A stretch of DNA of 38,521 bases from a virus: UHGV virus genome UHGV-0033517; one strand, given 5' to 3'. Of this stretch, positions 2,649 to 28,440 are shown one piece after another. Made by a program: the position numbers and the translations under genes. Positions within the stretch are counted from its first letter, which is position 1; the number at the start of each line of letters is the position of its first letter. A model generated the notes under the pieces. The model did no database searches, was not told where the DNA came from, and saw only the letters and a program-made list of their open reading frames with translations.

Positions 2649-3680
2649 TTAAATGCCGTCCCAGTAGGTGATAGTCTGAGGATACAGCACCTGCACCTCG
2701 GACACGTTGGCCATGTAAGCGGTGTCATAGCAGACGCTGGTGGGGTTGGCCTGGCTCATAACCCGGGACAGGGGCACCAGCTCATCCACGTTCACAAAGC
2801 GCTCGTGGTTGACGTATACCACCATACGGTCAGCCCCGGAAGCGCCAGCGCCCTTGCACCAGCGGGTGCCGCCGATGTACAGGCTGCCGCCGTTCTTTGC
2901 GGCAATATTGTTCTTCATAATGTAGTCCATGATGGATTCGGTGGCCAAATTGGTCATGGGGGTGTTCATAATGTAGGTGTACTGGTCATAAGGCAGCAGG
3001 ATGTGGTTGGGCATGGCGGATTCATCATACTCAGCCGCCGCCCAGGTGGTGGTAATGGCCTTGTTGATGTCATCCAAAATCTGCAGGGGGGTTTTCTGCG
3101 ACCAGTTGGTGGAATCCCCGGTGCCGGTAGCGGCCACAGTGGTATGCACTGCGTCAGCGTTGTTCACAAGCCCGGTAGTGCCGTAGGTCGCCAGCCCGGT
3201 GTACACGTTTTCGTCCATGTGCTTGTCGTAGGCCATTCTTACGCCATCGGTCAGCATTTGGTCAAGCGAACGCCCGATGAAGTTGGCCCGCTGCATATCC
3301 TGAAACATAACACGCAAAGCCGCAGCGAATACATGTGCCTTAAACACTCCCTTGTCCACATTGGCCTGAATCACGGGCAGGCCGTTAGCGCCGCCGGCGG
3401 TCACGGGGCCGTCCCCGCTGCCGTTGGTCAGGCCGTAGCCCACGGACATGGCCGAAACATAATCAACCCAGCCTCCGCCGGTGTTGATGTTAATGTCCCG
3501 GGGGTAGGTCACACTGGTCAGGGGCTTCCGGATTAACGGGTCACGCTTTTCCAGTTCGGATTCCAGAAACGCCTGCCCGGAAGCAATCCCGGCAGCGTCC
3601 ATGGTGGGCACACCCAGCATGGGAGCGGTGGTTTTAGCGCCGATTACACCGGCATCAAAAGTTCCAACATTCGTATACAT
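2649..3680 (-). CDS. Major capsid protein (DUF2184-like)
   Basis: 343 aa. Follows the DUF2213-like and DUF2190-like genes (a recurring trio). Gly/Thr-rich N-terminus typical of this capsid family. Confidence 0.6.
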   Translation of the reverse strand: MYTNVGTFDAGVIGAKTTAPMLGVPTMDAAGIASGQAFLESELEKRDPLIRKPLTSVTYPRDININTGGGWVDYVSAMSVGYGLTNGSGDGPVTAGGANGLPVIQANVDKGVFKAHVFAAALRVMFQDMQRANFIGRSLDQMLTDGVRMAYDKHMDENVYTGLATYGTTGLVNNADAVHTTVAATGTGDSTNWSQKTPLQILDDINKAITTTWAAAEYDESAMPNHILLPYDQYTYIMNTPMTNLATESIMDYIMKNNIAAKNGGSLYIGGTRWCKGAGASGADRMVVYVNHERFVNVDELVPLSRVMSQANPTSVCYDTAYMANVSEVQVLYPQTITYWDGI

Positions 3681-3697
3681 ATCGGTTATACCTCCTT

Positions 3698-4210
3698 TTA
3701 GGCGTTGATGATGGTCATAATCCGCATGGCGGCCACCTTGTTGGTGTCAGCAGCCCCGCCCCACTGGCAGTTGGTCAGCTGTACGGTGTTGGTGCTGTCG
3801 GCCTCGGCCTCCAGCCCGCCCACAACAGCGTTGGGGAAGCTGGTGTTTGCGGCGACACGCAGATACACAGCGCCGCCCAGTGCGGGGGTGCCTTTCTGGC
3901 AAATAACGTTGACAACGCCACGCTTAAACACGGACACGGGTTCCCCGGGGGCGTACTGGCCTACGCCCTGCTCCAGATAGGCCAGGGTGGTTTTAACCTC
4001 CCGGGAAGCGATACCGACAAACTTGGCGGCGGTGTCGCTTGCGCCCATGGCCACCACCTTGGTGCCGTCATATTTCAGGGGGGTGCCAAAGGTGATAGCG
4101 GCGGTGCCGCCAGCGGGGTGGGTGTCAATAATCATATCGGGCTGCTGGGCATAAGACCCGGCGAACCCGTTGGGCATGGTTTTGCCGATAACCTGAGTAG
4201 TCAGTGCCAT
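3698..4210 (-). CDS. DUF2190-like head structural/decoration protein
   Basis: 170 aa between the protease/scaffold-like gene and the capsid gene. Composition and position typical of the DUF2190 family. Confidence 0.45.
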   Translation of the reverse strand: MALTTQVIGKTMPNGFAGSYAQQPDMIIDTHPAGGTAAITFGTPLKYDGTKVVAMGASDTAAKFVGIASREVKTTLAYLEQGVGQYAPGEPVSVFKRGVVNVICQKGTPALGGAVYLRVAANTSFPNAVVGGLEAEADSTNTVQLTNCQWGGAADTNKVAAMRIMTIINA

Positions 4211-12515: not shown

Positions 12516-12920
12516 TCACCCCTCCGGGGGTGTTTTTTGTTGCAGCCACCGGATATGCGCCTTCCGCACCCCGGACGGGGTGTTTTTTCCGCCCATCCGG
12601 TAAGCCACCTCCGCCCAGCTGTTGCCATCCACATACCGCAGCCACAGGATACGCTGGATGTACAGGTCGTCCACTGCGTCAATGTATTCCATCAACCGCC
12701 GCTCTTCCCGGATTAGTTTTCCCCGTTCCCCGGCTATCTGTTCCTCCAGCGCCGCCAGCTGTATGGCCATATCCCCCACGGGGTCGCCCGGGCCTGTATA
12801 CACACCGCTGCCGCCCGGGGGCCGCACCTCCGACTTCTGCCGTAATTCCTTCAGTCGGCGCTCCAAGTCCTGTATCCTCCCCCGGATATGCCATAAACGT
12901 TTCAGTTCGTGTGGTTCCAT
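12516..12920 (-). CDS. ArpU-family / sigma-70 region-4-like late transcription regulator
   Basis: 134 aa. C-terminal ..YIQRILWLRYVDGNSWAEVAYRMGG..VRKAHIRWLQQ resembles a sigma region 4 HTH. Classic position upstream of the terminase genes. Confidence 0.55.
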   Translation of the reverse strand: MEPHELKRLWHIRGRIQDLERRLKELRQKSEVRPPGGSGVYTGPGDPVGDMAIQLAALEEQIAGERGKLIREERRLMEYIDAVDDLYIQRILWLRYVDGNSWAEVAYRMGGKNTPSGVRKAHIRWLQQKTPPEG

Positions 12921-14515: not shown

Positions 14516-14775
14516 TTGCAGGCGCTTACCGCCATCTGGTAATCACAAGCCCAAGTCCCCGCCTTCATCCGCTCCGGGCGAATATCGTTCAGGCTGTCAA
14601 TGGCCCGCTGGACTACCTCCGGGGTAAATTCCTCGGCCAGCCGTTGGAGCTGCCAGCGTGTCAGGCTCAGGCCCTTTTTGTCCAGCTCGTAGGTGTTCGG
14701 TTCAAGCCAATCCTTCTCACGCATACTTTGCCGCCCCCTCTCTCGGGATGCTGTCCAACACCAGGTGGTAATCAT
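14458..14775 (-). CDS. Hypothetical replication-module protein
   Basis: 105-aa ORF directly downstream of the repeat-bearing replication gene. Confidence 0.3.
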   Translation of the reverse strand: MITTWCWTASRERGRQSMREKDWLEPNTYELDKKGLSLTRWQLQRLAEEFTPEVVQRAIDSLNDIRPERMKAGTWACDYQMAVSACKWVVERMSGRVRKGEAECK

Positions 14776-15556
14776 CCCGGTATCGACCTTCTGCTATCGC
14801 CGTTGGCTTGTCCCGTGCGGCGGTGTCCAGCGCCATTTGGGCGCACTCCTCCCCCAGCAAGCCGGTCAACAGCCGCTTGTTGTTGTCGGTCAGCGACAGA
14901 CCGTGGTAGTTAATACCCCCGGGCTTTGGCTCCTCAAGGCTTTGTTCCTCGCGCGCATAACTAACAAACAAAGAGTTAATCTCTTGACCTTGACCTTTAT
15001 ATTCTTTTTCTTTATCTTTTTCTTTATTTCTTTCTTTGCTTCTTTCTTTCTTGTTTTCTTTTTCGGTTTCTTTTTCTTGCTCAAAACCCCCGGGTTTTTC
15101 ATCCAAAAGGGGGGGGTTATTCTCGGTTTTATTTTCAAAACCCCCGGGTTTTTTAATAGAAAGGGGGGGGTTATTTTCAAAAACCCCGGGGTTATTATCC
15201 AAAAACCCCCCGGTTTTTTCTTCTGCGCTCAAATCGTCAGGGGTTTCTTCTTGTGCGGTCTCGCTTTCAAAAGATGGGGTTTCCTCTTTAAAAGGGGAGG
15301 GTTTTTCCTCTGAAACGGCGTCCTTTTTCGGGCGACCGCCCTTCTTGCCGTTTTCTTTCCCGGCGGCTCTCTGTTCGTTCTCCGCATCAATCTGCGCTTT
15401 CGCAATGTCAAAAACAATCTCCGCCGCAAGGGAAAGGCCCTCTGGTTCTTCTCCGCACATTGAATACTCCATGGCCGCACGAAGCACTTCTCCCTGCTCG
15501 GCAGGAGAGAGCTTTTTGATAGTGGTATAAAAAATGGCCGGATACCGAAACATCAT
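14717..15556 (-). CDS. Putative replication initiation/organiser protein with central low-complexity repeat region
   Basis: 279 aa. Globular N-terminal domain with basic patch (GKKGGRPKK), then PGGFE/NNPPL repeats and a KE-rich tract encoded by DNA direct repeats and homopolymers. Lies in the replication module next to the Hjc-like gene and SSB. Confidence 0.4.
   Translation of the reverse strand: MMFRYPAIFYTTIKKLSPAEQGEVLRAAMEYSMCGEEPEGLSLAAEIVFDIAKAQIDAENEQRAAGKENGKKGGRPKKDAVSEEKPSPFKEETPSFESETAQEETPDDLSAEEKTGGFLDNNPGVFENNPPLSIKKPGGFENKTENNPPLLDEKPGGFEQEKETEKENKKERSKERNKEKDKEKEYKGQGQEINSLFVSYAREEQSLEEPKPGGINYHGLSLTDNNKRLLTGLLGEECAQMALDTAARDKPTAIAEGRYRDDYHLVLDSIPREGAAKYA
14999..15220. repeat. 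Polypyrimidine A/T-rich tract plus three direct repeats of about 42–54 bp with AAAACCCCCGGGTTTT near-palindromes and G8 runs (iteron-like)
   Basis: About 84-nt T/C tract at 14999–15082. Repeat units at about 15082–15136, 15137–15178, 15179–15220. G8 at about 15109–15116 and 15163–15170. Confidence 0.5.
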
Positions 15557-15876: not shown

Positions 15877-16326
15877 TCAAAACGGCCAATCATCGTCCTC
15901 TACGCCTTCGTCTATCGGGTAGTAGGCTTGCCCGCCAAGCTTCTCCTGTTTGTACTCCGCTGTGGGCTGCTTCTGGTCGCCCACGCTTGTCCAGCCGCCG
16001 CCATTGCTGTCCTTTTTGCTGTCGGCAAAATGCTGTTCTTCTATCACTACCTCGGTGGCGTAGCGCTTGTTCCCGCTGTCGTCCTCCCAGCTTCGTGTCT
16101 GGATACGCCCCACAACGGCAACCTGCTGGCCCTTGCGGAAATATTTGTTAGCAAACTCGGCAGTCTTGTTAAACGCCAGACAGTTGATAAAATCAGCCTG
16201 TTGTTCGCCGTCTTTTTTCCAAGGCCGATTTACCGCCAGCGTGTACCGGGTAATTGTCACATCATTGTTCGTGGTTTTGGTCTCCGGGTCTTTCGTCAAT
16301 CGCCCCAGCAACACAACCTTGTTCAT
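15877..16326 (-). CDS. ssb: Single-stranded DNA-binding protein
   Basis: Start refined to MNKVVLLGRLTKDPE (GGAGGAGG RBS). OB-fold pattern and acidic C-terminal tail ..DDDWPF. Confidence 0.8.
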   Translation of the reverse strand: MNKVVLLGRLTKDPETKTTNNDVTITRYTLAVNRPWKKDGEQQADFINCLAFNKTAEFANKYFRKGQQVAVVGRIQTRSWEDDSGNKRYATEVVIEEQHFADSKKDSNGGGWTSVGDQKQPTAEYKQEKLGGQAYYPIDEGVEDDDWPF

Positions 16327-16717
16327 GTGCTTCCTCCTCCAGATAGTTTTTACCCACCAAGGCCATCCATTGGGCCATTGTGTGGGTCTCCAGATATTTG
16401 TTTTCGCAGTCCCGTTGGATTTTTCGCCGCAACGCATACCCGTTTCGGTGTACGCTGTATGGTGCGGCGTTGTGGTATTCAGCCGTCAGCCATACCCAAA
16501 ACCCCTGCTTGTCGCTCATGGCACGCCGGGGGCCGCCGAAGATATGGTGCTTGTGTAGATTATCGGTGCGCCCGGTCAGGTAACAAACCTTCTCCCGGCC
16601 CTGTAACAGGCTTACGCTGTGCCCGGGCTTCTTTTTTGCTGTGTAGATGGCCGCCAACTCCTTTTCAGGCTTTCCAGTTCTTCCTCGGTCATGGTCTCGA
16701 TTCCCAACTGCTGGCAA
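16262..16717 (-). CDS. HNH-like endonuclease-family protein (start uncertain)
   Basis: Motif CYLTGRTDNLHKHHIFGG ... EYHN resembles the HNH/His-Me finger. The 105-nt overlap with the upstream gene suggests a downstream alternative start. Confidence 0.35.
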   Translation of the reverse strand: MPAVGNRDHDRGRTGKPEKELAAIYTAKKKPGHSVSLLQGREKVCYLTGRTDNLHKHHIFGGPRRAMSDKQGFWVWLTAEYHNAAPYSVHRNGYALRRKIQRDCENKYLETHTMAQWMALVGKNYLEEEAHEQGCVAGAIDERPGDQNHEQ

Positions 16718-19344: not shown

Positions 19345-19512
19345 TCAACGGAATGCACCTCCCAGCCAGCCAAACACCGCTGCCCCGGCCATACCCCCGA
19401 ACATCCCAACGGTGGCGGGGAGGTCAGCCATCGTGTCGCACTCCATACCCCCCACACAGCCGATTGCGATAATAAAGCACAGGGCCGCAAGGGCTAAAAA
19501 TTTAATTTTCAT
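19345..19512 (-). CDS. Small putative lipoprotein
   Basis: Start refined to MKIKFLALAALCFIIAIGC (GGAGGA RBS). Signal peptide with lipobox AIGC. 55 aa. Confidence 0.35.
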   Translation of the reverse strand: MKIKFLALAALCFIIAIGCVGGMECDTMADLPATVGMFGGMAGAAVFGWLGGAFR

Positions 19513-20380
19513 GGCTATCCTCCAACGGTACAAATTCGCCGCACATTAGGTTATCGGGTTTGATTTTGGCGGTCACAGTTCGGTTGGATTTATCGTATAG
19601 CTTGACTTTCAGGCCGGCGTAAATACCAAAGCCATAGCCAGCTTCAATCAACCCGCCAGCTTTAATCGACCCGTTAGCTTCAATCGACCCGCCAGCTTTA
19701 ATCAACCCGCCAGCGTTAATCAACCAGCCAGCTTCAATCGACCGGCCAGCTTTAATCCACTCGCCAGCTTCAATCGACCAGCCAGCTTTAATCCACTCGT
19801 CAGCTTTAATCGACCCGCCAGCTTCAATCAACCCGCCAGCTTCAATCGACCCGGCAGCTTTAATCGACCCGCCAGCTTTAATCAACCTGCCAGCTTTAAT
19901 CGACCCGTCAGCTCTAATCAACCCGGCAGCTTTAATCGACCCGCCAGCGTTAATCAACCAGCCAGCTTCAATCGACCCGCCAGCTTCAATCAACCCGCCA
20001 GCTTCAATCGACCAGTCAGCTTTAATCCACTCGTCAGCTTTAATCGACCCGCCAGCGTTAATCCACTCGCCAGCTTCAATCGACTTGCCCGATTTAATCA
20101 GCCCGCCAGCTTCAATCCACCGTTCGACAACAATCTTTCCCGCAAATACGACCGCCCCATCGGTTTTGATTTCGTCCACGGCCAGTACATCGTCTGTCGG
20201 CCCCAGCCTGTTCAGCAACCAGCTTGCAAAATCCGGTTGGTCGTGTTCGCAAGCAGTGTCCAGAACCTTTTGATACTCACCGCCATCGGGGTGGTGTTCT
20301 GCGAAGAATTCAAGTCCCTCGTCGCATGCTCCCAGTTCAATCAGCGTGTCCAGCGTGATTAAGTCAGTTCCCTTTCTCAT
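19502..20380 (-). CDS. Hexapeptide-repeat beta-helix protein (27 tandem xIxAGx hexads) with distinct N- and C-terminal domains
   Basis: 292 aa. Residues about 97–258 are perfect-period hexads (SIEAGG LIEAGG SIKADE WIKAGW ...), encoded by 18-bp DNA tandem repeats. Confidence 0.6.
   Translation of the reverse strand: MRKGTDLITLDTLIELGACDEGLEFFAEHHPDGGEYQKVLDTACEHDQPDFASWLLNRLGPTDDVLAVDEIKTDGAVVFAGKIVVERWIEAGGLIKSGKSIEAGEWINAGGSIKADEWIKADWSIEAGGLIEAGGSIEAGWLINAGGSIKAAGLIRADGSIKAGRLIKAGGSIKAAGSIEAGGLIEAGGSIKADEWIKAGWSIEAGEWIKAGRSIEAGWLINAGGLIKAGGSIEANGSIKAGGLIEAGYGFGIYAGLKVKLYDKSNRTVTAKIKPDNLMCGEFVPLEDSHEN
19600..20110. repeat. About 27 imperfect tandem copies of an 18-bp unit (consensus near CCAGCTTYAATCRACCCG), in frame within a coding gene
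   Basis: Visible directly in the sequence. Period 18 nt equals 6 codons. Confidence 0.8.
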
Positions 20381-21342: not shown

Positions 21343-21371
21343 TCGTTCCACGTTTCCTCCTTTCCCTCTGT

Positions 21372-21418
21372 CTTAGACTTAAAGTCTAAGATAAGTATAG
21401 TAGACTTAAAGTCTAAAG
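21372..21418. promoter_or_regulatory. Two copies of the palindromic operator TAGACTTAAAGTCTA embedded in face-to-face divergent promoters
   Basis: Copies at about 21372–21390 and 21400–21418, 27 bp apart. Plus promoter TTAGAC, 17 nt, TATAGT. Minus promoter TTGACT, 17 nt, TATACT overlapping it. Confidence 0.5.
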
Positions 21419-21432
21419 TCAAGAGGTTTTTT

Positions 21433-21660
21433 ATGTTTGATAAATCTGTTTTTGGTTCTCGGGTTCTGGAGCTTCGTAAAAATGCCGGCTTCTCTCAACA
21501 GGCCCTTGCAGAACATTTAGGCGTATCCTTCCACCAAATCAGTAAAATGGAAACAGCCCAGCGTGGCCCGTCTCTTGAGGTTGCCTGCGCCCTTGCCGAC
21601 TTCTTTGATGTGAGCTTAGACTACCTCGTGGGCCGCTCTGACAACCCGGAACGCAGGTAG
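21433..21660 (+). CDS. XRE-family HTH regulator, paralog A1 (C-terminal FFDVSLDYLVGRSDNPERR)
   Basis: 75 aa. AAGAGG RBS. Operators immediately upstream. Confidence 0.6.
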   Translation: MFDKSVFGSRVLELRKNAGFSQQALAEHLGVSFHQISKMETAQRGPSLEVACALADFFDVSLDYLVGRSDNPERR

Positions 21661-23088: not shown

Positions 23089-23103
23089 TTTGTTCACCTC
23101 CAT

Positions 23104-23206
23104 TTGATATCTTTATGATATCACTTTATTTCCCGTGTGTCAACTTCTTTTTGATATCTTTTTGATTTCTTGCCGTTGATATCACTTTCAAATATAATTG
23201 ATATCA
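23104..23206. promoter_or_regulatory. Array of five GATATC-centred operator-like repeats (TTGATATCA) within divergent RHH-gene promoters
   Basis: GATATC at about 23106, 23117, 23153, 23178, 23200. Plus -10 TATAAT at about 23193. Minus TTGACA, 17 nt, TATCAT at about 23144–23116. Confidence 0.5.
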
Positions 23207-23225
23207 AATAAGGGGAGGTAATGTT

Positions 23226-23411
23226 ATGGGGATTCAAGCTAATCCATATCCGCTTCGGATTGAAAAGTCGTTGATGGAGAAACTAAAGATTGTCGCTGCC
23301 AGCAACGGCAGGTCAGTAAACAAAGAGATTGAATATCTCATCCGGCAGATGGTCGCTGCCTATGAGCAGGAACACGGGGCTATTCCCGTCCAGCCGGATG
23401 GCCTTTGTTGA
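23226..23411 (+). CDS. Ribbon-helix-helix (Arc/MetJ/CopG-like) regulator
   Basis: 61 aa. PLRIEKSLMEKLKIVAASNGRSVNKEIEYLI is a typical RHH N-terminal beta-strand plus helices. Confidence 0.5.
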   Translation: MGIQANPYPLRIEKSLMEKLKIVAASNGRSVNKEIEYLIRQMVAAYEQEHGAIPVQPDGLC

Positions 23412-23839: not shown

Positions 23840-23990
23840 GACTTTCGTATTGCGTAAGTCTATGATACTATATCGCCGCCGTCTTGTCAATACTTTTTGC
23901 GTATCTTTTTGCGCTAAACGCAAAAAAAATATTGCAATCATTCTTCGAGTGCTATATAATCACATTAAAGATTTAGTAAAAGAGGGAAGT
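23840..23990. promoter_or_regulatory. Divergent regulatory region with TTGCGTAAGTC repeats, palindrome TTTGCGCTAAACGCAAA and promoter TTGCAA, 17 nt, TATAAT
   Basis: TTGCGTAAGTC also occurs at about 23606. The plus promoter sits about 30 nt upstream of the 23996 gene. Confidence 0.45.
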
Positions 23991-23995
23991 GAAAA

Positions 23996-24319
23996 ATGAG
24001 CAATTTATCAACCGTATTAAAAGCCAGAAGAAAAGACCTCGGCTTAACACTTGCCCAAATCGCTGACGAAATGGGTGTGTCCGAAGCCACCGTGCAACGC
24101 TGGGAAAGCGGAAACATTAAATCTATTAGGCACAACAAGGTGGTAAAGCTGGCGCAGCTTCTTGATGTTTCCCCGGCGCAGCTCATGGGTTGGGATATAG
24201 ACACAAACAAAGAAGAATCAATTCTGGACAAAACTCTCCGCAGATTATTAGTTAACGCCACAGAAGAAGATAAACAGGCGTTGATTTTTCTGTTGGAGCG
24301 CTTGCAGGACAAAAAATAA
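23996..24319 (+). CDS. XRE-family repressor-like protein (cI-like candidate)
   Basis: 107 aa. N-terminal HTH LTLAQIADEMGVSEATVQRWESG plus C-terminal dimerisation-like extension. Nearest regulator to the integrase, same strand. Confidence 0.6.
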   Translation: MSNLSTVLKARRKDLGLTLAQIADEMGVSEATVQRWESGNIKSIRHNKVVKLAQLLDVSPAQLMGWDIDTNKEESILDKTLRRLLVNATEEDKQALIFLLERLQDKK

Positions 24320-24919: not shown

Positions 24920-25945
24920 ATGCTGAAACGCAAAGACGGTCGTTGGCAGGAAGCGCTTACAACCACCAAAAACGGGGAAACCACAAGAAAATACTTCTAC
25001 GGCAAGACGAAGGCCGAAGTGGCCAAAAAGATGGCGGCATACCAGCAAAAACAGGAAGCTGGCCGCACCTTCGCAGCCGTTGCGGATGAATGGGACACCT
25101 ACCACAGCGAATTGGTCACCTACAACGCCCACGTTGCGTACAAAGCCCCTTACCGTATGGCGGTTGACCGCTTCGGGGATACGCCCATTCGAGAGATAAC
25201 GCCGCCGCAAATCCAGCAGTATATTAAACAGATTGCCGCCAAAGGCTACGCTCGGCGCACCGTGGCGGGGCATTTAACGCTGCTGAACATGATTTTCGAC
25301 TTTGGCGTTGTGTCCGGGGACTTGTTGACAAACCCCACGGCCAGTGTGGCCATTCCCCGGGGGCTTAAAACCACCCCGAGAACCGTTCCCGACAATTCGG
25401 ATATTCAGAAGATAAAGGAAAATCTTCATTTGCCCTTTGGCCTGTTCGCCTATCTGCTGCTTTACACCGGACTGCGCCGGGGCGAAGCGTTGGCCCTGAC
25501 TTATGAGGATATAGACCGGGCCGCCGGGGTTATCCACGTTAATAAGGCGGTGTACTTTGATGTAAACCAACCAGCCGTGAAAGATACAAAGACAAAGGCG
25601 GGAACCCGTACCGTCCCCCTGTTGTCCCCGCTGGAAGCCGCTCTGCCACGCAAGGGCCGTGGGCCGATATTTTGTACCACGGAGGGGAAGCTGCTCACGC
25701 AGACGGTTTTCCGGCGGCGATGGGCGGCCTACCAGAAGGCCACGGGGATTAAGTCAACCCCCCACCAACTCCGTCACCTCTATGCCACCATTTTGTTCGA
25801 GGCGGGGATAGAGGACAAAACCACGCAGGAGATTATGGGGCACTCCTCCATTGCCACCACTCGGGCAATTTATACCCATATCCGGGAACAAAAGCTGGCC
25901 GAAACCACCGACCGATTGAACAGCTATTTCGGCCAAAATATTTGA
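24920..25945 (+). CDS. int: Tyrosine site-specific integrase
   Basis: 341 aa. N-terminal RKDGRWQ arm-type domain. Catalytic-domain signature ..HQLRHLYATILFEAGIEDKTTQEIMGHSSIATTRAIYTH. Confidence 0.85.
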   Translation: MLKRKDGRWQEALTTTKNGETTRKYFYGKTKAEVAKKMAAYQQKQEAGRTFAAVADEWDTYHSELVTYNAHVAYKAPYRMAVDRFGDTPIREITPPQIQQYIKQIAAKGYARRTVAGHLTLLNMIFDFGVVSGDLLTNPTASVAIPRGLKTTPRTVPDNSDIQKIKENLHLPFGLFAYLLLYTGLRRGEALALTYEDIDRAAGVIHVNKAVYFDVNQPAVKDTKTKAGTRTVPLLSPLEAALPRKGRGPIFCTTEGKLLTQTVFRRRWAAYQKATGIKSTPHQLRHLYATILFEAGIEDKTTQEIMGHSSIATTRAIYTHIREQKLAETTDRLNSYFGQNI

Positions 25946-26299: not shown

Positions 26300-26965
26300 T
26301 TACAGTCTGCCCATTCTGTCCAGCACCACGAAAATCCGTATCATATCCTCCGACAGATTCAGTAAATTCGGGTCGGCAAAGGCCCCGGCGGCCACCAGCT
26401 TCTCCACGGTGGCCCGCCCCCATTCGGGCAACGATTCCACGGTTTGATAGTACATAACTTCGTCCTCCTGTTGTTTTTGTTTCAGATAAAAGTCCAGCCG
26501 CCCCCGGAAAAACGTCCAACTAAGCCCGGGCTGAATACAATCTTTTTTGATAAAGATTCGTGGACAGTCTTTGGGATACCAGTCACGGTGCCACTTAATG
26601 TCAGCAATTCCCAAATCGTATTCTCTCATTTTGTCGGCTACAAACTCGGCGGTAGTGTCCAACACGCCCCGGCGGTTGCCGCTTTCAATCATTTCAACGC
26701 TAACAGAAAACCGATTTCCCACCGTGTTTTTACAGTGATAGGCCTCCTCGGTGTCGGGAATGGCCTGAATCACCACTCCGTCACCAACAACGTAGTGAAA
26801 GGACGCTTCCCGCTGGTTAGCCGGATTTTCCAGCCAGTCCCGTTCGTTTTGCGGGGTACTGTTTGGGTTGGCCGTGCTGTGCAAGGTTATACTTTTTACA
26901 GGATAATTCCCCCCGGGCCTCCGAAAAAATCCTTTTGGCAATAACTGCTTCTTTAATTCGTACAT
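26300..26965 (-). CDS. Endolysin, N-acetylmuramoyl-L-alanine amidase (Amidase_2/PGRP-type)
   Basis: Start refined to MYELKKQ (GGAGGGAA RBS). Zn-amidase motifs ..HSTANPNS..ASFHYVV..CKNTVGNRFSVSVEM... Last gene of the late operon. Confidence 0.75.
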   Translation of the reverse strand: MYELKKQLLPKGFFRRPGGNYPVKSITLHSTANPNSTPQNERDWLENPANQREASFHYVVGDGVVIQAIPDTEEAYHCKNTVGNRFSVSVEMIESGNRRGVLDTTAEFVADKMREYDLGIADIKWHRDWYPKDCPRIFIKKDCIQPGLSWTFFRGRLDFYLKQKQQEDEVMYYQTVESLPEWGRATVEKLVAAGAFADPNLLNLSEDMIRIFVVLDRMGRL

Positions 26966-27121
26966 GGTTCCCTCCAAGTCTTTGAATTTGTGGGGCGATT
27001 TAAGCGATTCCCGCCCCGGTCGATAAATTACACGCCGAACAGGCAAAACGCATTCTAGCCCCCTTGTAGGCCATTCTGAGCGGTCATGTAAAAACAGGCC
27101 CCCTTGCGGGGGCTGTTTCGG

Positions 27122-27453: not shown

Positions 27454-28440
27454 TTATCCCTCCCGAACCAGAGTGATGGTTTTTGTCAGGTCGTCCCACA
27501 ATACCGCATACCCCAGCAGTTCGGCCACGTTCCGCAGCGGCACGAGGGTGCGCCAGCTTTGGGGGTCAACGATGGGGGCTTGCTCCCAAGTTTGGGGTTT
27601 CCCGTCCACCAATACCTCCTGTTTCCCGATGGTCATTTTGATGACGTGTTCGGTCAGGCCGTCATTCTGCAAGTCCACACAACAAAAAGCGTCCAGCCAG
27701 AGTACCCGGAGGCCGGTGTCTTTCGTGCGGTAGTCCAGATAATCATAGGGCAACCAACCGTACCCGTCTGCGCCCCAGTCGGTGCCCCAGCTGTTCTTGA
27801 TTAGCAGGTGCCCGGTATGCCCGGCATGGGTCAGGGTGTCGTCATACCCTACCACCGCAACCGCATGACCGCCGATGGGGATGATTTTATCCGGCAGCGG
27901 GACAAACGGGGATTCTTTTTTCACGGCGTAGATTTCCTTTGTGGCCTGAAACCCCAGCGCTACCGGCTTCCCCAAGGCCAGCGCTTCCTTGATTTCCTGC
28001 ACGCTGGTACACCGGGCGTAATTCCTGGAGCGATACCGATACCCGTAGATTTCAGCGGGGAATTTCAGACTGCCGGGAACATACTGTTCAAAGGGGCAAA
28101 ACATTTCCAGCACCGTCCCGGTCTTGCACATGGCCTTCATCAGCGCCAACAGGTCGCTGCCCTCCTCGCCGGGGTGATTGTCAATGGCCTTGACCTCTTT
28201 CGCCAACGCAAGGGGTGACATATCCTGTTGATAGCCCTTTTCCTTGTATTCCTGTACGTTCTTGATTTCTGCCCCTGTGAAGCTGTGACAGACCCCGGCC
28301 TCGCCCTGGTCACGCACCGGGCCGCAGCACTCCCGCAGGGATACCGCCTTCGGCAACACCGCCGGGGCCTTTAGCACCGACCGCAACAGCCAGTCGGAGG
28401 CGGCCTCCGGGGCTTTTTGTAGGTTCAGCTTGCGTTCCAT
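27454..28440 (-). CDS. Papain-like cysteine peptidase (C1 family) fused to a copper-amine-oxidase-N-type cell-wall-binding domain
   Basis: 328 aa. Catalytic Cys block [13 protein letters not shown], His block [12 protein letters not shown], Asn/Trp block [18 protein letters not shown]-terminal ..[29 protein letters not shown]. Confidence 0.7.

Follow-up and report, generated by a model that had tools for sequence, protein, structure and literature searches.

A putative replication origin embedded in the DUF6291 gene of a temperate phage: phased A-tract/G+C-core/T-tract elements beside an invariant A/T-rich block

Where does the temperate phage UHGV-0033517 start to replicate its DNA, and with which protein? 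Among the early-region open reading frames (ORFs) tested, no match to a helicase, loader, primase or polymerase was found, and the largest of them, of 279 and 292 residues, fall short of the size of a replicative helicase or polymerase. A first-pass annotation drew attention to a repeat-rich segment inside the gene for the 279-residue protein and likened it, putatively, to the lambda-type origins embedded in an initiator gene. Here we analyse the whole stretch of 38,521 nucleotides (hereafter the window), and with moderate confidence, on computational evidence, we propose that the segment is a putative phage origin embedded in its own initiator gene and composed of iterons and a DNA unwinding element. 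Every computational test run lends support to that proposal: the invariance of the DNA, the phased repeats at the DNA level, the lowest duplex stability, the position in the linker and the lack of any other replication gene. The features on which the argument turns are the following.

14717-15556, minus strand: gene (ORF) for the 279-residue DUF6291 protein, candidate origin-binding protein or replisome organizer
14959-15064: 106-nt ultraconserved block, candidate DNA unwinding element and loading site
15065-15082: rest of the T/C-rich tract, which links block and first element
15083-15217: six elements, each an A-tract, an 8-nt G+C core and a T-tract, candidate iterons (15083-15098, 15105-15120, 15137-15152, 15159-15174, 15180-15195 and 15202-15217)
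14912-14927: candidate seventh element, AATACCCCCGGGCTTT, a looser copy with two mismatches on the far side of the A/T block
15270-15306: two weaker, degenerate elements, AAAAGATGGGGTTT and AAAAGGGGAGGGTTTTT, further upstream in gene sense

The block is distinguished in the first place by its lack of variation. Fifteen full-length homologs (56-100% identity) come from human-gut metagenomes, and DNA was compared in a codon alignment of 12 loci, which amount to 10 distinct sequences; scans of IMG/VR and GTDB seeded on low-complexity KE peptides gave two distant loci and nothing, respectively. Across the 10 distinct sequences the block is nucleotide-identical bar one single-nucleotide polymorphism (99-100% over the 12 loci), and it is the sole exact block of at least 34 nt common to all nine loci in the shared region. 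Around it, identity to the window ranges over 56-95% in the DNA for the N-terminal domain (N-domain), 48-97% in the repeat zone and 78-94% in the DNA for the C-terminal domain (C-domain). Not one of the 23 third codon positions in the longest run of the block is variable, versus 117 of 202 elsewhere in the gene (p=1e-8). Codon use in the block also departs from that of the phage's own genes, with lysine and glutamate codons ending in A in 15 of 17 cases versus 45% (p=4e-4), and both arginine codons of the block are AGA, a 6% codon in this phage. The adjoining 15065-15082 is kept as well; the exceptions are a single codon that varies and, in L003 and L004, a deletion of 12 nt in the P0006-type gene. 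Exact searches with the block in GTDB genomes, IMG/VR and JGI metagenomes returned nothing, and no host or prophage copy was found in them; judging from these searches, the block does not appear to be a widespread mobile or host sequence.

In addition to its invariance, the block has the composition of an easily opened duplex. The 84-nt T/C-rich A/T tract reported by the first-pass annotation is present at 14994-15077, where the plus strand is 90% pyrimidine; among the 84-nt stretches of the window, strand skew is at its highest here (mean 0.55, standard deviation 0.07). The conserved unit itself extends to 14959, about 35 nt past the left boundary given earlier. It consists of an A/T-rich tract at 14994-15064, polypurine on the coding strand and polypyrimidine on the other, and of AAGGTCAAGGTC together with TAACT-N11-AGTTA at 14959-14992. 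G+C content falls to 20% over the 50 nt at 14995-15044. According to nearest-neighbour parameters, the lowest duplex stability of the whole genome lies at 14995-15044 for 50-bp segments and at 14957-15056 for 100-bp segments, both more than 4 standard deviations under the mean.

Within the part that is not A/T-rich (14959-14992), a tandem AAGGTC repeated twice accompanies the 5-bp inverted repeat TAACT-N11-AGTTA; this part may serve as a site for loading or for a host factor, or as a primer promoter. Other segments of low stability lie at 21353-21452, 23101-23250 and 23884-24033; they are mostly intergenic regulatory regions, within or close to the region of the lysogeny switch and the integrase, in which G+C content goes down to 0.44. 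Those at 21.4 and 23.1-24.0 kb are the alternative places for an origin if the embedded-origin model fails.

Upstream of the block in gene sense stands the array of candidate iterons. The three direct repeats of 42-54 bp described earlier do exist (family D2; starts at 15081, 15135 and 15177; spacing 54 and 42 nt; 68-100% identical), and they are better taken as pairs of a shorter element of about 16 bp, with the formula A(3-6)-[C/G]8-T(2-5), which occurs in six copies. Centre-to-centre distances in this array are 22, 21, 22, 32 and 22 bp, and the element closest to the A/T block starts 35 nt upstream of it. The first-pass annotation had assigned both a near-palindrome and a G-run to each repeat; both kinds of sequence are there as cores of the elements, near-palindromic in some (CCCCCGGG, CCCCGGGG and CCCCCCGG) and homopolymeric G8 in others, the two exact G8 runs at 15109-15116 and 15163-15170 being cores of repeated elements. 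Proline is encoded by CCC at all seven of its positions in the repeats. In 38.5 kb, the pattern AAA-S8-TT has 9 strand-hits, all at the six array sites, where 1.1 are expected and none of 100 shuffles reaches 9, so that a search of the genome for the repeat unit finds it only in the array. As for the looser copies, the CCCGGGGG core of the candidate seventh element is present in most homologs and lost in L005, L012 and L013, and the degenerate elements, D2 copies at 15267 and 15288 with 61-64% identity, are partly kept in homologs.

The same search in related phages shows that every homolog has 2-8 elements of the form A(n)-S(m)-T(n) arrayed upstream of the block, and in the homolog loci of 16-21 kb a scan of the plus strand finds no elements outside the array, or two weak ones only. 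The G+C core is 8 nt long in the group of the window, 6 in L005, L008 and L014, and 4 in L010 and L011. Elements of the homologs occupy all three codon registers and are read as peptides as different as KPGGF, NNPPL, NPGVF, KTPLS, ETPF, KPLF and KGVL. Their centre spacings are 11, 21, 22, 32, 43 and 54 nt, multiples of 3 in 15 of 35 cases; over all homologs, periodicity is strongest at 10.5-10.75 bp, which none of 2000 random placements matches. What is repeated is therefore a DNA element, set on one face of the helix at a phasing of about 10.6 bp, and not a peptide.

These observations bear directly on a simpler explanation, in which the DNA has no role in cis and merely encodes a low-complexity, disordered linker whose PGGFE, NNPPL and KE-rich repeats arose by replication slippage and are kept for spacing, flexibility, charge or condensates. 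The same DNA does encode the peptide repeats and disordered linker of the 279-residue protein, as had been stated earlier and as the ORF translation and the AlphaFold model bear out: the minus strand, which is the coding strand of the segment, encodes ...EKTGGFLDNNPGVFENNPPLSIKKPGGFENKTENNPPLLDEKPGGFEQEKETEKENKKERSKERNKEKDKEKEYKGQGQ..., and residues 71-212 are modelled as disordered. Repeat copy number differs among homologs by in-frame insertions and deletions, as expected of slippage-prone DNA, and linkers rich in KE, NV or DK are found family-wide, which could reflect a requirement at the protein level. Selection on the protein, however, cannot freeze about 35 consecutive third codon positions when 58% vary elsewhere in the gene, nor can it account for block codons that oppose the preference of the genome. 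Moreover, the elements hold their DNA form while peptides and register change, and their spacing is of 10.6 bp and not of 3 bp. We consider this explanation distinctly unlikely. The constraint acts on DNA and not on the peptide, because the block is invariant while the elements keep their DNA form and vary in number, core length, register and encoded peptide. The first-pass annotation had named free variation of the DNA repeats under a conserved peptide as the outcome that would speak for coding constraint; what is found is the opposite, with DNA form kept and peptides varying.

A further suggestion was that the two G8 runs (C8 in the coding sense) are a contingency site for phase variation, or a site of programmed slippage, that switches or truncates the protein. 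Homopolymer runs of 8 nt are generally slippage-prone, and two exact ones do lie in this coding region. Yet the reading frame is intact over this region in all 15 homologous proteins, and the runs change by substitution (C8 to C7T or AC6), giving C8, C7 and C6 without insertions or deletions of one nucleotide. In the homologs with cores of 6 and 4 there are no long runs and the array is kept, and alternative frames encode nothing conserved. The idea of a frameshift or phase-variation site thus finds no support, and we regard it as highly improbable.

The homologs also show how the parts of the gene evolve with respect to each other. N-domain type and element array seem to vary together, block and C-domain stay, and N- and C-terminal parts assort independently across the block: compared to the window, L012 is 94.8% identical in the N-domain and 77.9% in the C-domain, and L010 is 55.7% and 93.7% identical, respectively. 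Cores of 8 go with N-domains of the MFRYP/MMYRFP type and cores of 6 or 4 with those of the MFGLPIEF type, an association that comprises few independent lineages. Judged by these alignments, such modular evolution of N-domain and array versus block and C-domain would be as expected for an initiator together with its origin.

The same pattern is open to a second interpretation, namely that the block is mainly a junction for homologous recombination at which co-infecting phages swap N-domain cassettes, or another site acting in cis (such as a promoter in antisense or for a primer, or a site for a host factor), with the elements binding a regulator and not an initiator. The independent assortment of N- and C-domain variants across the block in L012 and L010 speaks for it, and so do the stand-alone N-domain ORFs of opposite type that lie upstream in L003, L013 and L010, which would be scars of cassette exchange. 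An antisense sigma-70-like TTGACC-17-TATCTT occurs in the block at 14990-15018, but this promoter-like match, of 9 positions out of 12, is at chance level (1 found versus 0.9 expected in shuffles). Recombination at the block would be a consequence of its conservation and leaves unexplained an invariance over 106 nt with the same sharp limits in all loci. Furthermore, a recombination junction is compatible with the origin model and does not exclude it; the O/ori regions of lambdoid phages are also recombination junctions. As a replacement for the origin model we hold this interpretation to be unlikely.

The stand-alone DUF6291 N-domain ORFs deserve a description of their own. They lie directly upstream of the full-length gene in L003 (9690-10004), L013 (2693-3004) and L010 (2783-2998), encode 104, 103 and 71 residues, respectively, belong to the other N-domain type than the full-length gene of the same phage, and have no adjacent A-S-T elements; the window has no such ORF. 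They may be cassette-exchange scars, or trans-acting decoys directed against the other origin type.

Turning to the protein, the first-pass annotation had taken the gene to belong to a replication module, which was an assumption: it encodes an uncharacterised DUF6291 protein and stands at the end of a recombination module. On the same strand and upstream of it are genes for a Mu-Gam-like protein, an SSAP (phrog_7838), a NinB-like protein, an SSB and a PDDEXK/RusA-like resolvase. Translation may in truth begin at a second ATG, at 15553. Pfam assigns DUF6291 (PF19808) to residues 9-77 (E 9e-15; 55 bits versus a gathering cutoff of 27.2) and nothing else in the protein, and NCBIfam gives no match. 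In the AlphaFold model, a confident three-helix N-domain (residues 1-68) and a confident helical C-domain (residues 213-279) flank residues 71-212, whose predicted local distance difference test (pLDDT) score is below 50; a GGRPKK motif at residues 73-78 comes just after the N-domain. Elements and A/T block encode residues 113-200, that is, they fall inside the disordered part and between both folded domains. By analogy with known organizers, we infer a DNA-binding role for the N-domain and a recruiting role for the C-domain. In a structure search of BFVD every match was another DUF6291 protein; submitters had labelled a few of these 'replisome organizer' or 'DnaD domain protein', which is weak evidence. 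A sequence profile of the protein gave nothing meaningful against PDB chains, searches of isolated phages at the DNA and protein levels gave distant N-domain matches only, and a word-indexed search with the C-domain alone gave one fragment only. By these sequence comparisons, the protein is not a member of any known organizer family.

The family to which the N-domain belongs offers additional clues. A HMMER scan with the N-domain against a library clustered at 50% identity found 607 representatives at E<=1e-3. Among the best 149 of them the domain is N-terminal in 148, those with a single matched stretch, and the C-terminal partners are DnaB_2 (DnaD-like) in 10, DUF7833 in 6 and Phg_2220_C in 5; the sole other family in this set is one borderline MecA match (E 9.8e-4). 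A protein of Riemerella phage GRNRAP2, for instance, joins DUF6291 to Phg_2220_C, and the experimentally defined REP of phage TP901-1 joins HTH_36 to DnaB_2. From its DnaB_2 and Phg_2220_C partners, DUF6291 therefore fills the N-terminal, origin-binding position of replisome-organizer architectures. The GGRP motif after the domain is nearly invariant in the family, and we take it to resemble the core of an AT-hook. Repeated short peptides occur in the 60 residues after GGRP in 91 of 113 representatives, compared to 3 of 113 in the N-domain, and most of the linkers listed then carry NVNVN, DKDK or EKEK tracts. In line with this, the distant gene L015 has AAACC-type repeats spaced by 11 or 22 bp followed by an A/T-rich tract, and the distant gene L001 has two 51-nt repeats followed by a polypurine A/T tract.

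The features that characterise a phage origin embedded in an initiator gene are thus found together at this locus: an array of at least three sites, helically phased and confined to one place; an adjacent A/T-rich element that is easily melted; a position in the linker-coding part of the gene; and selection on the DNA beyond coding needs. These findings allow us to propose a model for how the segment could work. The N-domain, together with the AT-hook-like GGRPKK motif, would bind the phased elements at 15083-15217, and a wrapped or bent nucleoprotein complex would form on one face of the DNA. This complex would in turn destabilise the adjacent block at 14959-15064, which has the low stability described above and would presumably melt upon binding. 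The C-domain, carried on the long disordered linker, would then recruit the helicase-loading machinery of the host. The DNA would double as coding sequence for the linker, with the protein tolerating whatever peptide the elements happen to encode.

Several points weigh against this model. DUF6291 is uncharacterised, and no paper mentioning it was found in the literature searched. The 279-residue protein matches no known replication domain in Pfam, NCBIfam, Foldseek or hhalign comparisons: its C-domain has no Pfam match even at E<=1, Foldseek finds no match in PDB, and the hhalign comparison with TP901-1 REP is insignificant (E 0.25). The cumulative GC skew, proposed earlier as a check, falls monotonically through the segment with no inflection there, but it is uninformative in this case because it tracks the direction of transcription and nearly all genes are on the minus strand. 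The homologs all come from one closely related phage group, so that the comparative counts are not independent events, and recombination that repeatedly homogenises the block could be part of the reason for its invariance. Finally, the link between N-domain and element type is imperfect: the helical domains of the L005 and L010 groups are nearly the same, and their cores have 6 and 4 nt, respectively, the sole difference between these core-6 and core-4 groups being an insertion beside the GGRP motif.

A more elaborate version of the origin model, which we offer as speculation and consider improbable in its entirety, would make the system a plug-and-play one. The frozen block would be at once melting site and homology anchor for the swapping of N-domain/array cassettes; core length (8, 6 or 4), read by the helical domain and the AT-hook-like GGRP, would set specificity; and stand-alone N-domain ORFs would act as decoys on the iterons of competitors, bringing about exclusion between phages.

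If the embedded-origin model is true, DUF6291, a widespread and unstudied phage family, would receive its first functional assignment, as an origin-binding replisome organizer with a self-embedded origin. It would also supply an origin signature for uncultured gut phages that have no recognisable replication genes, namely phased short repeats and an A/T-rich simple tract in the linker after GGRP. In addition, the locus is a clean case of DNA-level selection that overrides codon preference in a coding region and is tolerated by a disordered linker.

Other functions of the segment were considered and rejected. An overlapping gene is not indicated, as ORFs in other frames over the block start at varying places, differ in length and stay open simply because stop-codon bases are missing from the tract. 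Against a pac site stands the position of the small-terminase gene, about 3.5 kb downstream in gene sense, as judged by synteny with L003 (GP3_package). With respect to RNA, the best Rfam match has 23 bits versus a gathering score of 70, which leaves no known structured RNA family, and the single-strand structure of the segment (z = -2.1) is not strong and comes from the palindromes only, the purine tract being unstructured. An attP site is rejected on its distance to the integrase gene:

24920-25945: tyrosine integrase, 10 kb from the segment

As regards the phage itself, the window comprises a nearly complete temperate phage of 55% G+C that has a contractile tail, with genes for amidase, sheath, baseplate J and tape measure, and related contigs of about 40 kb have the same gene content. 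A 151-residue ORF (16262-16717, minus strand) between the NinB-like and SSB genes matches phrog_7566, of unknown function (E 7e-23), and overlaps the long-form ORF of the SSB; the SSB probably starts at an internal methionine near 16326, because the Pfam SSB match begins at residue 38 of the long ORF and SSB products at homolog loci have 139-149 residues. A 134-residue protein (12516-12920, minus strand) that matches phrog_36 'transcriptional regulator' (E 9e-15) closes the early region, about 1 kb ahead of the inferred small-terminase gene, and is likely a late-gene activator. The largest early-region protein, of 292 residues (19502-20380, minus strand), has sub-threshold FapA and haemagglutinin-repeat (beta-solenoid-like) matches only and no PHROG match. 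In the lysis region, beside the amidase (26300-27046, minus strand), a 328-residue protein (27454-28440, minus strand) combines a papain-type Peptidase_C1 with Cu_amine_oxidN1, an unusual endolysin partner. Downstream of the DUF6291 gene, L011 has a 360-residue PAPS-reductase-family gene (2664-3746) that is absent from the window; one is also present in the early region of GRNRAP2.

How does the proposed origin compare with those already known? In lambda, ori lies in gene O. Four dyad-symmetric, helically phased and intrinsically bent iterons come first as the gene is transcribed, and a strand-asymmetric A/T-rich region comes next; together they code for the linker that joins the N-terminal DNA-binding half of O to its C-terminal recruiting half. 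Across lambdoid phages, it is the N-terminal half and the iterons that are type-specific, and the A/T region and C-terminal half are more conserved. Here, too, the elements precede the A/T region in gene sense and are helically phased, and the modular pattern seems to recur. The differences are that the protein has no homology to O, that no P-like loader gene is present, that the elements have a G+C-run core of variable length, that conservation of the A/T block is much stronger here, with 106 nt invariant, and that the host is probably a Gram-positive gut anaerobe.

Phage SPP1 provides a second parallel, since its oriL, which combines direct repeats with an AT-rich unwinding element, is inside gene 38, which encodes the replisome organizer G38P (PMC6316719). 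Both loci thus share direct repeats and an adjacent AT-rich unwinding element within the gene of the origin-binding protein. SPP1, however, has its own loader gp39, a DnaB-type helicase gp40 and a second origin, oriR, whereas the window has none of these and its elements are at one locus.

Likeness extends further to TP901-1 and Tuc2009, of the lactococcal P335 group, in which ORF13 and Rep2009 bind repeats within their own genes that act as origin, so that a repeat-rich origin inside the organizer's own gene is common to them and to the present phage (PMC8965321). As in TP901-1, the repeats lie in the DNA for the linker between an N-terminal domain, a helix-turn-helix (HTH) in that phage, and a C-terminal domain, the protein has about 270-280 residues, the phage is temperate and without helicase or loader, and the gene set comprises SSAP, SSB, organizer and resolvase. 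The resolvase gene follows that of the organizer in TP901-1 and precedes it here. REP, with its HTH_36 and DnaB_2, has no detectable homology to the combination of DUF6291 and an unassigned C-domain, and its A/T-rich direct repeats contrast with the A-tract/G+C-core/T-tract elements found here in a phage of 55% G+C. Together, these comparisons leave the general picture of phage replication unchanged, because the arrangement itself has long been known. The mechanism is of a known kind, and what is new is the protein family, the element type with its variable G+C core between A- and T-tracts, and the frozen block of 106 nt: the origin-in-organizer layout, known from lambda, SPP1 and TP901-1, is new for DUF6291.

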